From the NCBI RefSeq assembly GCF_009931435.1, contig NZ_CP043414.1: a stretch of 64,000 nucleotides of DNA. One strand, given 5' to 3'. The notes below the pieces were generated by a model, which saw only the letters and a program-made list of their open reading frames with translations, was not told the DNA's origin and did not search any database. Position numbers and translations under genes: made by a program. The stretch is from Escherichia coli (lineage in GTDB: Bacteria > Pseudomonadota > Gammaproteobacteria > Enterobacterales > Enterobacteriaceae). The stretch's first letter is position 1; the number at the start of each line of letters is the position of its first letter. Below are positions 2,386-6,582 of this stretch, in pieces.

Positions 2386-3708
2386 TTATAACCGATGAAA
2401 TTTTGCCAGTAAGGCCAGTGAAAATGTTGTCAGCAAAATGGTAATGACTGCGTAAATATACACTCCTGACCATTCCCAACTGTTTTTCACCATAATAACT
2501 GGAAGCCCTGCCATTGCCGCGCCTAAATAACTAAACAAGCCCCTGAATCCAGTAATGGAACCTGCCGCATCTTTATGCGTAACATCAAGACACCCGACAG
2601 CGAATAACATATGCGGTCCATACAATGCAAACCCCATGATTGTAAACAGAATAGCCGTTAATGTGTAGGAGACGTCCTGCACCAGCGGTACGAGAACGAT
2701 GCAAATACATAAAGCGATGGCAAAGATTAATCCTGTCATCCAGCGGTTACTTTTAAACATGAAATCGGACAAGTACCCCGCCAGTAATCCCCCAGCAAGT
2801 CCACCTGCTTCAAACCAGGATATAATGGAGTTCGCTTTAATCAGGCTCCAGTTATGAACCTGAGAATAATAAATTTGTGGCCAGTCATTGAGGATGGTGC
2901 GTGCAATATAGACCGACATATCCCCGAGGATAATGAGCCAAACTAATGGGTTGGTAAGAATATATTTAACGAATATTTGCCAAAAACTGAGATCAACCGG
3001 ACTTGCTTTAACTTGTGCAAGTTCTGTCGGGTCGTTGCGCCACTTACCGACGTTAGGCAAACCGAGCGTGCCGGGACGATCTTTTATCGTAAACAAGGCA
3101 ACAATCCCCATAATCAGTGAGATTACACCCGGAACATAAAAGCCCATCTTCCAGCTGCCACTAAAAGCAATAGCAAAGCTTGTCAGGAGAGGCGCAAGAC
3201 TACCGCCAATATTATGCGCAGCTTCAACAACTGCCCACCAGCGTCCGCGTTCATTTTTCGAGAACCACGAGGCCATAATTTTTGCCATTGGCGGAAAACT
3301 GGTACCCTGGAGAATAGCATTAAGGCTATACAGGATATAGAACGCAGCAACGCTGTCTGAAAAACCGAAAAGAATGTTAACAATACCGACGCCAATAAGT
3401 ACGGGGCCAGTCATCGCTCTTGGGTTAATTTTATCGACTAACATGCCACCTACAAACTTCATGGAGCCATAAAGAATGTAAAAGACCGACGACATGATAG
3501 CGAAATCTTGTGCGGTTAATGACGTATCCGTTAACATCGCTGGCATGGCCGCAGAGAAATTCTTGCGGGTTAAGTAAAATACGGCATAAGAGATAAATAC
3601 AGAGGTGATGATTTCAATGCGAAATTTTTTATAAGTATGATCAACTTCTTCTTTTGGTTTGACCACCGGTTGGTCGGCCTGGCTGAAAATAAATTTTTTC
3701 AAACTCAT
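2386..3708 (-). CDS. MFS organophosphate:phosphate antiporter (OPA family; GlpT/UhpT/PgtP-like)
   Basis: 440-aa ORF aligning by eye with GlpT along its length (YLTRKNF, WFSKNERG, GPHMLF-type motifs); RBS aagga 7 nt upstream; AT-rich codon usage. Confidence 0.85.
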   Translation of the reverse strand: MSLKKFIFSQADQPVVKPKEEVDHTYKKFRIEIITSVFISYAVFYLTRKNFSAAMPAMLTDTSLTAQDFAIMSSVFYILYGSMKFVGGMLVDKINPRAMTGPVLIGVGIVNILFGFSDSVAAFYILYSLNAILQGTSFPPMAKIMASWFSKNERGRWWAVVEAAHNIGGSLAPLLTSFAIAFSGSWKMGFYVPGVISLIMGIVALFTIKDRPGTLGLPNVGKWRNDPTELAQVKASPVDLSFWQIFVKYILTNPLVWLIILGDMSVYIARTILNDWPQIYYSQVHNWSLIKANSIISWFEAGGLAGGLLAGYLSDFMFKSNRWMTGLIFAIALCICIVLVPLVQDVSYTLTAILFTIMGFALYGPHMLFAVGCLDVTHKDAAGSITGFRGLFSYLGAAMAGLPVIMVKNSWEWSGVYIYAVITILLTTFSLALLAKFHRL

Positions 3709-3740: not shown

Positions 3741-4628
3741 CTATAATTTTTCTTCTATAAAAAAGAGAAGCGACTCGAAACCATTAAAATTAATCTGGTC
3801 AGCAATTTTTTCCCGGGTTTTAGGTTTTGCTTTCCATGCCACGCCATTTCCGGCATGCAAAAGCATAGGAATATCATTGGCACCATCTCCACAGGCAATG
3901 ATGTTTTCACGGCAGATAGCTAACTCTGTCGCTAAATTTATCAGGGTTTGCTTTTTCTTTTCTGCATTCATAATAGGTAAGGTAATTGTATCAGTTAACA
4001 GATCTTCCTTAATGCGCACAGAGTTAGAAAATGCAAAATCAAGTTGATATTTTTCCTTCAATCGCTCAGTAAAAATATCCAAACCTCCAGATATAATTGC
4101 CGTCTTGAATCCTTTTTCTTTTAGTATGGGAAGAATAGTTTCAAGACCTGGTGAAAGAGTCATCTGTTCACAAACTTTATGCAATATATCTTTATGCGTT
4201 CCTTTAAGCATGGCAATTCGCCGGGTAAAACTGGCATCAAAATCGATTTTCCCTTCCATCGCTTCACGGGTCAGTGCGGTGATTTTTTCAGAGATGCCGA
4301 GTCTACGGGCTATTTCATCGACACCTTCTTCTTCAACAAAGGTGGAATCCATATCAAAGGCAATAATTCCCTGATCCGGTAAGACCTTGGGTTTACGGAA
4401 AAAATCAAACTGATGATTATCAGCACGGTGACGTAAACCAGCATAAAAAGCAGGGTTGGTAACATCATCTGGTAATACTAGCTTTAGATACTCTTTATTT
4501 ATTTGCCCACTGTAATTCGTTGTTAGCGAAAACACCGAGGGGGAAATCTTTAAATGTTGCAGATAATCTTCCAGACATTTTTGGGTGATGTCGATGCCTG
4601 TTGGCGACAAGAAATAAATAATCGTCAT
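3741..4628 (-). CDS. HAD-superfamily phosphatase, phosphoserine phosphatase (SerB)-like
   Basis: 295-aa ORF with HAD motif I FDMDST and motif IV GDGANDIPM; RBS aaggag upstream. Confidence 0.8.
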   Translation of the reverse strand: MTIIYFLSPTGIDITQKCLEDYLQHLKISPSVFSLTTNYSGQINKEYLKLVLPDDVTNPAFYAGLRHRADNHQFDFFRKPKVLPDQGIIAFDMDSTFVEEEGVDEIARRLGISEKITALTREAMEGKIDFDASFTRRIAMLKGTHKDILHKVCEQMTLSPGLETILPILKEKGFKTAIISGGLDIFTERLKEKYQLDFAFSNSVRIKEDLLTDTITLPIMNAEKKKQTLINLATELAICRENIIACGDGANDIPMLLHAGNGVAWKAKPKTREKIADQINFNGFESLLFFIEEKL

Positions 4629-4722
4629 TTACCGCTCCTTTTTATCTGCAATGATTATAATAAGATTTCATAGAGGCTGATGTATCTGACAATCACAGTT
4701 GTGAATGTTAAATAAAAGATAA

Positions 4723-4785
4723 AAAAGTACTTTTTTTGATACTTTGAAATAATAAGATACTAAAAGTACCATTTTTGATATCTTT
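4723..4785. promoter_or_regulatory. Two ~24-bp direct repeats (AAAAGTACnnTTTTTGATAyyTT) in the divergent promoter region of the island
   Basis: Repeat 1 at 4723-4745, repeat 2 at 4762-4785, 16 bp apart, between the divergently oriented phosphatase/transporter and dehydratase/XRE genes. Confidence 0.35.
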
Positions 4786-4838
4786 ACCAGGATATAAAGA
4801 ATAACTATTTTTCAACGTTGAAGGAATCATTTACAAAT

Positions 4839-6191
4839 ATGGAAAGCTGCATAGATATATTCAAGATAGTTATTGGTCCATCCAGTTCCCGCACAGTCGG
4901 GCCAATGCGTGCGGCTTATAATTTTGTGTCACAATTGAAACAGCAAGAAATGTTACCTTTGTTGCGGAAAATTGATGTCGAACTTTATGGTGCGCTGTCA
5001 TTAAGCCGCAAGTGCCATAATGTTGATGTGGCGATTTATCTCGGTTTGCAAGGACACTTACCTGACAGCGTTGACATTCGCATGGAAATGTCCGCCATCA
5101 GGCGTGCAGAAACTGAGGCGACGCTGGAAGTTATGCCTGGTGTCAACGTCAGTGTATCCATTCTTTCTAATCTACAAGCGCATCCGGGGCACCCTTATGC
5201 GATGACATTTCGTGCCAGAGATGACTGGTTTACACTTTATGAAGAAACCTGGTTTTCTATCGGCGACGGTCAAGTGCTAAAAGCAGGAGAGGCGATTATT
5301 CCTCCATCAGTCACTCCACATCCTTTTGAATTCCAGAACGCAAACGAATTATTAAAACTTTGTCAGCAAAACGGATTATCTGTCGCGGCATTAATGATGA
5401 AAAACGAACTGCACTGCCAGACAGCAGCTTTTTTGCATGACGATCTTCATAAAAAATGGGAAGTAATGAAGGATGCGGTTTATCGCGGGATGCATACAGA
5501 AGGATTACTTCCAGGTCCGTTTCAGGTTAACCGTCGTGCCTGTGCTTTATATAAATCGTTGCAGTCAAAGGGGTTTTCCAATGACTTCCTGACTACGCTC
5601 AATTGGGTCAATACTTTTGCCATTGCGGTGAGCGAAGAAAATGCTGCGGGTGGACGTGTCGTGACAGCACCCACCAACGGCGCGAGCGGTATTATCCCGG
5701 CTGTACTGTGCTGGTATGATAAATTCATTCACGAGCTTGATACATACTCCGTTACCCGCTTTTTACTGACCGCTGGTGCCATCGCCATTCTGTTCAAAAA
5801 AAATGCCTCTATTCTGGGTTCTGAAGTTGGATGTCAGGGGGAAATAGGTGTTGCCAGTTCAATGGCGGCAGCAGGATTAGCAGAACTTATGGGCGGGTCA
5901 GTGGCTCAGGTACTTAGCGCGGCAGAAATTGCGATGGAGCATCATTTAGGTTTGACCTGTGATCCAGTTGGCGGGCAGGTACAAATTCCTTGTATTGAAC
6001 GAAATGCTATTTCAGCTGTGAAAGCTATCAACGCAACGACGATGGCGTTGAGTCGCATAAGCGAGCCGTGCATTACGCTGGATGAGATAATTTCCGCGAT
6101 GTATGAAATCGGAAAGGATATGAGCGCTAAATACCGTGAAACTTATCATGGCTGTCTGAGCAAATTGCAGCCAAGAAAAAAGGATGCGTAA
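4839..6191 (+). CDS. Fe-S L-serine dehydratase (SdaA/SdaB/TdcG family)
   Basis: N-terminal [17 protein letters not shown] and internal [31 protein letters not shown] match SdaA signature blocks. ATG at 4839 chosen over the track's TTG at 4818 because of the aagga RBS. Confidence 0.85.
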
Positions 6192-6192
6192 G

Positions 6193-6582
6193 ATGAAATA
6201 TAATACGATGAATAACAACGAAATTATTTTATCACTGTGCGCTCGCATTAAAGAAACGCGTATCTCATTATCATTGACCCAACAGCAGTTAGCCGAGCGT
6301 GCATTGGTGGGCATAGCAACGGTCAAGCGGATTGAAAAGGGGGGAAGTTTAAATCTTGATACTCTCATTTCTCTTCTGCGCGCGCTGAATAAATTGCAAA
6401 ATCTCGATGCCATATTGTTCGAAGCAGAAATGCGTAATTTCAACGAAAATAGTTCCAGCGGCGAAGGGGCAGGGCGACTACAGGTACGCCAGCAACTGAC
6501 AGATTTAAACCAGAAGTCTCCAGCCCCGCACGCAGATGACCATAATTTTAGTACGGCGCTGGAAAATACCCTCTGCTGGTGA
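6193..6582 (+). CDS. XRE-family helix-turn-helix transcriptional regulator
   Basis: 130-aa ORF with HTH block LSLTQQQLAERALVGIATVKRIEKG; aagga RBS 8 nt upstream of ATG at 6193; last gene of the island. Confidence 0.7.
   Translation: MKYNTMNNNEIILSLCARIKETRISLSLTQQQLAERALVGIATVKRIEKGGSLNLDTLISLLRALNKLQNLDAILFEAEMRNFNENSSSGEGAGRLQVRQQLTDLNQKSPAPHADDHNFSTALENTLCW

Follow-up and report, generated by a model that had tools for sequence, protein, structure and literature searches.

The question raised by this locus is whether a pair of repeats between two divergent operons of Escherichia coli serves as the operator of a small regulator encoded beside them. The locus is a four-gene cassette between cirA and yeiG, within a 64-kb stretch of chromosomal DNA that was analyzed as a whole and is called the window here. 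The first-pass annotation had described two near-identical direct repeats, 16 bp apart in the 210-bp AT-rich region between the operons, as a likely operator for the XRE protein of the cassette. We propose that the two repeats, R1 and R2, are very probably dyad-symmetric operators, each bound by a dimer of the cassette's own HipB-like XRE protein, a reading that rests on comparison of sequences.

The cassette and its genes

The cassette consists of a leftward and a rightward operon.

2386-3708, minus strand: OPA (organophosphate:phosphate antiporter)-type MFS transporter gene, second gene of the leftward operon (Pfam MFS_1)
3741-4628, minus strand: SerB-like phosphoserine phosphatase gene, first gene of the leftward operon (TIGR00338, 208 bits; cut-off, 144)
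4839-6191, plus strand: L-serine ammonia-lyase (dehydratase) gene, first gene of the rightward operon (Pfam SDH_alpha and SDH_beta)
6193-6582, plus strand: gene for a 129-aa XRE/HTH_3 regulator (Pfam HTH_3; PGAP annotation)

The transporter is UhpC/PgtP/GlpT-like and matches the NCBIfam UhpC, PgtP, and GlpT models, in each case below the cut-off. The dehydratase is of the one-chain type, starts with the ATG at 4839, and scores 546 bits against TIGR00720 (cut-off, 345). With an OPA antiporter, a SerB-type phosphatase, and an L-serine dehydratase, the cassette reads as a phosphoserine import-and-burn pathway; a literature search for bacterial phosphoserine uptake or catabolism found no paper. 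The phosphatase has an additional N-terminal region of ~80 aa. No mobility genes were seen.

The XRE gene, flanked by the dehydratase gene and yeiG, starts one base past the dehydratase stop codon and is therefore probably cotranscribed with it. The description of the XRE protein as the sole regulator of the cassette held up: Pfam HTH_3 was found only in the 129-aa product of 6193-6582.

The control region of the cassette was found in 86 of 5426 complete E. coli genomes. The cassette is also present between cirA and yeiG in Citrobacter koseri, C. freundii, C. portucalensis, Scandinavium, Escherichia whittamii, and Salmonella enterica subsp. arizonae and diarizonae. Rather than a mobile island, it seems to be an old locus that was lost, or else exchanged through homology of its flanks.

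Two conserved palindromes in the divergent control region

R1 and R2 lie in the intergenic region at 4629-4838, between the divergent serB-like and L-serine dehydratase genes. Its GC content is 25.7%, compared to 51% for the window and 42.7% for the cassette.

4723-4745: predicted operator O1 (R1), containing the palindrome AAAGTACTTTTTTTGATACTTT at 4724-4745, dyad center 4734.5, matrix score 25.2
4762-4785: predicted operator O2 (R2), containing the palindrome AAAGTACCATTTTTGATATCTT at 4763-4784, dyad center 4773.5, matrix score 26.8

R1 reads aaaagtactttttttgatacttt and R2 reads aaaagtaccatttttgatatcttt, with a gap of 16 bp, and a repeat search of the region returned 19-nt copies of 89% identity, 39 bp from start to start. 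The top ungapped 19-mer match between them (17/19) was reached by none of 1000 dinucleotide-preserving shuffles of the 210 bp, and the match value of the 23-mers was reached in 1 of 1000 such shuffles. The coordinates, the match, and the shuffles thus bear out the first-pass description of the repeats and their setting. The annotation had also called for a search for the motif elsewhere; across the 64-kb window, with up to 3 mismatches allowed, the core AAAGTACNNTTTTTGATA occurs twice, at R1 and R2.

The term "direct repeats" is correct in that the copies are repeated, but it understates their symmetry, as O1 and O2 are each an imperfect 22-bp palindrome. The family consensus is AAAGTATCA-N4-TGATACTTT, and the dyad centers of O1 and O2 are 39 bp apart. 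Within the site core, GTATC-N6-GATAC, the half-site centers are 11 bp apart, or one helical turn, as expected for a helix-turn-helix (HTH) dimer on one face of the helix. The right halves of the sites in the window are good (TGATACTTT and TGATATCTT); the left halves retain AAAGTA and are degenerate beside the T-rich center. Sites in Pectobacterium score on both strands and point to an underlying palindrome with the halves AAAGTATCAAT and ATTGATACTTT.

We aligned the intergenic regions of nine cassettes from at least five genera, whose XRE proteins are 65 to 75% identical to that of the window. Four conserved islands stand out amid diverged sequence: ATTATAAT at 4654-4661, TATCACAG-TGTGAATG at 4691-4707, R1, and R2. 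Mean column identity was 0.79 in R1 and 0.84 in R2, compared to 0.60 in the spacer between them and 0.52 to 0.57 in the flanks, and the consensus from the alignment is AAARGTATYRTTTTTDATAY. Both cores are also kept among E. coli strains that are 94 to 99.7% identical in this region. Only the sdaCB and hipBA contexts described below provide independent evidence from the co-occurrence of sites and regulator; co-occurrence among orthologous cassettes does not.

The XRE protein resembles HipB

The XRE protein belongs to the XRE/Cro-C1 family by its match to Pfam PF01381 (HTH_3) over residues 19 to 66 (37.6 bits; cut-off, 23). Its score against the curated HipB model TIGR03070 (Y4mF/HipB), 41.2 bits, falls below the cut-off of 71.65, and no hipA gene adjoins it in the window. 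Two other traits of HipB antitoxins are present: a flexible tail with a conserved Trp, and repeated palindromic operators upstream of the protein's own operon, in the form of two 22-bp palindromes, predicted to be operators, ahead of the dehydratase-XRE operon.

An AlphaFold2 model has five confident helices (residues 8 to 88) followed by a disordered tail (residues 89 to 129; pLDDT, ~40 to 54), and it contains no ligand-binding domain. The last residue of the protein is a Trp, found without exception in 22 of 22 homologues. Across the XRE family, the recognition helix retains the motif G(I/T)AT(I/V)KR, in keeping with the conservation of the half-site. The nearest solved structure is 4GHJ, an uncharacterized Vibrio regulator, followed by HipB proteins of Shewanella, Legionella, and Pseudomonas and then by controller proteins of restriction-modification systems. 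Shewanella HipB shares 34% identity with the XRE protein, with a TM-score of 0.8. A model of the dehydratase fused to XRE through a (G4S)5 linker, built from a paired 22-sequence alignment, gave a tail pLDDT of ~30 and no support for docking of the tail on the dehydratase, in what is a weak test (monomer, no Fe-S cluster, no PAE).

The motif accompanies the regulator family in other genomes

An exhaustive HMMER search recovered XRE homologues down to ~35% identity. A Pantoea homologue, 47% identical, has ggt on one side and a pirin gene on the other and is convergent with an sdaC-sdaB-type operon; two copies of AAGGTATCA(N)TGAT(A/G)CC, 38 bp apart, are found upstream of that sdaC. A scan of a genome collection with the XRE family alignment yielded 66 loci. 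Eight of these are the cassette, and in ~52 the XRE homologue is convergent with a dehydratase gene that comes after sdaC. Altogether, homologues of 32 to 57% identity adjoin sdaC-sdaB-type operons in ~50 genomes of Enterobacterales and Orbales; the genera include Mangrovibacter, Limnobaculum, Budvicia, Leminorella, Dickeya, Pectobacterium, Brenneria, Samsonia, Edaphovirga, Symbiopectobacterium, Pantoea, Zophobihabitans, and Gilliamella.

A matrix of 20 positions, built solely from the 18 sites of the cassettes, detects site pairs upstream of sdaC in most of the sdaC-linked XRE loci. With the symmetric consensus, the best pair of each ~12-kb locus fell within 650 bp upstream of sdaC, an interval that makes up ~5% of the locus, in 46 of 47 loci. 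Pair spacing at these loci is 33 to 40 bp, mostly 37 to 40. The XRE gene itself lacks an operator in the sdaCB context. Limnobaculum, Budvicia, and Leminorella have extra operator-like sites and a much longer gap, 136 to 147 bp, between operator and CRP-type site.

A third gene context was found in Pokkaliibacter plantistimulans, where the XRE homologue is the HipB of a hipB-hipA operon; the next gene encodes both N- and C-terminal HipA domains, and there is no dehydratase nearby. Four sites with an ATCA-N4-TGAT core, spaced 40, 35, and 41 bp, lie directly upstream of hipB, the last one reaching the hipB start (L062, 5851-5988 and 6001-7739), much as the operators of Shewanella hipBA are reported to run up to the start of hipB. 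This is the only homologue with HipA next door, compared to the ~50 that adjoin sdaB-type genes.

As a control, the sdaC and sdaA regions of E. coli K-12, which have no XRE neighbor, contained no site pair; their best pair scores were 22 to 23 of 36, compared to 26 to 33 at the sdaC loci. The motif therefore goes together with the XRE family in three gene contexts that are unrelated to one another (cassette, sdaCB, and hipBA) and is absent from a K-12 dehydratase promoter that lacks the regulator, which supports the reading of the sites as XRE operators. The claim that R1 and R2 are operators for this protein thus gains support from the nine cassettes, the sdaC loci, Pokkaliibacter hipBA, and the K-12 control, all comparative, and we infer from them that the protein would bind the sites physically. 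In the locus of a distant GC-rich homologue (L016), no motif was seen by eye in the short upstream region and no pair reached the threshold of the symmetric scan.

A single site is not diagnostic. A metagenome scan with the perfect palindrome AAAGTATCA-N4-TGATACTTT returned 115 matches, and among 80 of the matching loci that were retrieved, none had an XRE-family, dehydratase, SdaC, or HipA homologue; these matches are chance occurrences or belong to other systems in AT-rich DNA, which makes the scan uninformative.

Several further matches were recorded in passing. Upstream of sdaC in K-12 (L084, 5895-5914), AAAAGTATTGATTTTTTCAG scores 8.2 with the operator matrix and resembles a single left half-site; it could be an operator relic in a lineage that lost the XRE gene, or chance. 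Two weak matrix matches lie in coding sequence: GGAATTATTGCCTTTGATAT at 4351-4370 on the minus strand, where the SerB-like gene specifies the HAD motif GIIAFDMD, and GAAGGGATCCTGTTTGATAC near ~6214, which recurs in many XRE loci and encodes EGILFD of the XRE gene. Both are probably codon coincidences and were left out of the site counts. On metagenome contig PDWI01001161.1 (L125, 2093-2163; L126, 3354-3916), five perfect copies of AAAGTATCATTGATGATACTTT, including two pairs 48 to 49 bp apart, occur in an AT-rich element near a 301-aa open reading frame and a gene for a small Cro/C1-like HTH protein with no detectable relationship to the XRE family. Here the same palindrome may have come into use by convergence.

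Predicted promoters and a CRP-type element

Promoters were assigned as consensus matches only, in AT-rich DNA, and their positions are to be read as predictions.

4682-4697, minus strand: TGTGA element, reading TGTGATTGTCAGATAC on the minus strand, center 4689.5, 45 bp from the O1 center
4654-4659, minus strand: predicted leftward -10 element TATAAT from a matrix scan, the recurrent minus-strand match across orthologues, with a weak -35
4744-4772, plus strand: candidate rightward promoter, -35 TTGAAA (4744-4749) and -10 TACCAT (4767-4772) inside O2, top-scoring and uncertain

At a class II CRP-dependent promoter, a TGTGA-N6-TCACA site is centered near -41.5. The TGTGA element is probably the CRP-type left half-site of the leftward promoter, and a separate factor is also possible. 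Its left half is perfect, its right half (GATAC) is poor, and its center lies at approximately -42.5 relative to the predicted start. All nine cassettes keep the TCACA half unchanged. The leftward -10 starts 22 nt after the TGTGA core, as in the sdaC promoters, and is conserved in the nine-cassette alignment. Leftward transcription would start near 4647, which would place O1 at about -87.5 and O2 at about -126.5. An overlapping sequence, TCACAGTTGTGA at 4693-4704, is a perfect palindrome (TCACA-N2-TGTGA) whose right half is lost in Salmonella and in two metagenome cassettes, so that only the TCACA half is invariant across genera.

The sdaC promoters have the same arrangement. The proximal operator is followed by a TGTGA element and, 21 to 22 nt on, by a -10 (TATCAT, TAGAAT, or TAAAAT), which is the class II CRP layout; the Gilliamella promoters have a full TGTGA-N6-TCAC(T/A) site. 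The distance from operator center to TGTGA center clusters at 44, 54 to 56, and 63 to 65 bp, in steps of about one helical turn (for example, L041, 9737-9795, and L071, 9458-9519).

Matrix scoring, which gave a consistent leftward -10, gave no consistent rightward promoter. The hexamers of the top rightward candidate are kept in five aligned E. coli strains; E. whittamii has CTGGAA and TATCGT in their place, and other genera do not conserve the -35. Further candidates take the TTGATA of O2 as their -35 or are placed a little downstream of it; the pairs TTGATA 4775/AAGAAT 4797 and TTTACC 4783/TATTTT 4806 vary even among E. coli strains. Whichever candidate is taken, O2 is in contact with the rightward core promoter. 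A perfect 12-bp palindrome, TTCAACGTTGAA at 4811-4822, also lies just ahead of the dehydratase ribosome-binding site (GAAGGA, 4821-4826); it is kept in five aligned E. coli strains and is absent from E. whittamii and other genera.

Proposed mechanism and alternative explanations

We postulate that two XRE dimers, on O1 and O2, would set both divergent operons and XRE itself from one input. On the leftward side, the pair would lie upstream of, and in helical register with, the CRP-type element and a class-II-like promoter, as at the sdaC promoters; on the rightward side, O2 would abut or overlap the dehydratase promoter. For the sign of regulation, we lean toward repression with negative autoregulation. 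Repression is favored because the characterized relatives, the HipB proteins, are repressors, with strong DNA bending reported for HipB, because the sites of the hipBA homologue run into its start codon, and because O2 overlies the predicted rightward promoter. A point against is that simple repressors do not usually act from -87 and -126, where the sites would lie at the leftward promoter. As the XRE protein has no ligand-binding domain, control through the tail appears likeliest: relief might come from proteolysis of the disordered, Trp-terminated tail or from its capture by a partner protein, rather than from a small-molecule pocket.

An alternative hypothesis, which we consider unlikely but worth keeping in view, is that the same protein on the same sites acts as a co-activator (or in anti-activation) and not as a repressor. 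The XRE protein, at about -87 and -126 and on the same face as CRP at about -42, would aid RNA polymerase through the alpha C-terminal domain at the leftward promoter, and would act on the rightward promoter from about -40. Upstream activators act likewise at tandem-site (class III) CRP promoters. This hypothesis would account for the position of the operators upstream of a TGTGA element and promoter in every sdaC locus, for operator distances of 44, 55, and 64 bp that differ by about one turn and so suggest face-of-helix contacts, and for the weak leftward -35; it also agrees with the lack of an operator at the XRE gene in the sdaCB context, where the protein is thus unlike an autorepressed antitoxin. 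However, a bare HTH domain with a disordered tail offers no known activation surface, the sites of the hipBA homologue extend to the start codon in the manner of a repressor, and the closest characterized relatives, the HipB proteins, are repressors (PMC4150777).

The two other explanations we weighed leave the XRE protein with no part at R1 and R2. It is improbable that these are sites for a regulator encoded elsewhere (CRP, FNR, Fur, Lrp, ArcA, or a serine-responsive factor) while the XRE protein binds, for instance, TCACAGTTGTGA. The AT-rich region does hold a second conserved block, TATCACAG-TGTGAATG, but its TCACA/TGTGA sequence is palindromic only in some orthologues, with only the left half invariant. 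The motif, moreover, accompanies an XRE homologue into a hipBA operon without a dehydratase and is absent from the K-12 sdaC and sdaA promoters, which are exposed to the same global factors, and R1 and R2 fit no CRP, FNR, Lrp, Fur, or ArcA layout when compared by eye with the consensus layouts. Still more improbable is a nonregulatory origin, by chance or slippage duplication in low-complexity AT-rich DNA or as duplicated promoter hexamers. Each repeat does contain promoter-like hexamers (TTGATA, like a -35, and TATCAT, like a -10), and the region is 26% GC; against this, none of the 1000 shuffles reached the match, the repeats are conserved while their flanks diverge, and the same paired layout recurs in distant genera. 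The region also matches no Rfam family: models searched against 4400-5000 for a riboswitch or leader gave no match at E values up to 1.

A more specific version of the XRE-operator reading is that the protein is a domesticated HipB antitoxin that lost its toxin and retained a Trp-tipped docking tail, with operator occupancy set by capture or proteolysis of that tail. We regard this as doubtful. The captor would be a kinase or pathway protein encoded elsewhere, or else the tail would be a Lon-type degradation signal. If true, a partner switch derived from a toxin-antitoxin system would, together with CRP, gate serine and phosphoserine catabolism in Enterobacterales and Orbales.

Comparison with known systems

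Local XRE regulators that work through paired palindromic operators are well known as a kind. In Shewanella oneidensis, HipB recognizes four operators of the form GTGTA-N6-TACAC and introduces a DNA bend of ~125 degrees, and its C-terminal Trp inserts into a HipA pocket (PMC4150777). Like the HipB proteins of Shewanella and of E. coli hipBA, the XRE protein is a small HTH_3 protein with several palindromic operators of 5-N6-5 layout, the dimer and the sites being predicted here, and in both cases the C-terminal tail is flexible and carries a conserved Trp (PMC4150777). The systems differ in that both the cassette and the sdaCB loci lack hipA; the half-site is GTATC rather than GTGTA or TATCC; and the sites in the window number two, at a distance of 39 bp, instead of four, with metabolic operons as the targets.

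The Cro and cI proteins of phages 434 and lambda share the HTH fold class (434 Cro and 434 repressor, E of ~1e-5 to 6e-3). They bind as dimers to imperfect palindromes repeated in a divergent control region, where they autoregulate and switch two promoters, as would be expected of the XRE protein. Phage operators are ~14 to 17 bp long and 20 to 25 bp apart, with cooperative contacts between dimers, whereas the sites here are 22 bp long and 37 to 40 bp apart, and there is no phage context.

The controller (C) proteins of restriction-modification systems are small HTH_3 dimers, and their structures match the XRE model (C.Esp1396I, C.AhdI, and C.BclI). Each recognizes a pair of adjacent palindromes, one serving for activation and the other for repression, and is autoregulatory. 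C-box sites abut within ~35 bp, in contrast to the 39 bp found here. We considered and rejected the possibility that the XRE protein is itself such a controller, given sites 39 bp apart and no restriction-modification genes in the cassette.

CRP promoters with an upstream partner regulator include tandem-site class III activation and CytR-type anti-activation. The likeness to these lies in a TGTGA element at the class II distance from the predicted -10 (21 to 22 nt past the 16-bp core) and in predicted regulator sites one or more helical turns further upstream. In the window, however, the right half-site is poor, and the partner is the XRE protein and not CRP or CytR.

A full-text literature search found nothing on this XRE regulator or cassette, on sdaC or sdaB with an XRE protein or repressor, or on HipB with serine dehydratase. 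The XRE subfamily, its motif, its tight link to L-serine dehydratase operons across two orders, and its kinship with HipB appear to be undescribed in the literature searched. If confirmed, the findings would give a motif, a target set, and a name to an uncharacterized XRE subfamily that lies beside L-serine dehydratase operons in many gut and plant bacteria, among them many Enterobacterales (Pantoea, Pectobacterium, Dickeya, Brenneria, and Budvicia) and the bee-gut Gilliamella. They would likewise supply the control logic for a rare E. coli, Citrobacter, and Salmonella cassette, apparently for phosphoserine import and burning, and a clear example of a DNA-binding protein of the antitoxin type that was taken over for metabolic regulation. 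Serine catabolism is important for gut colonization and for fitness during inflammation, and a dedicated regulator of it would therefore be a useful handle. Some E. coli strains encode a second protein of the XRE subfamily, of 135 aa (P0062), with 37% identity and a Trp-containing tail.
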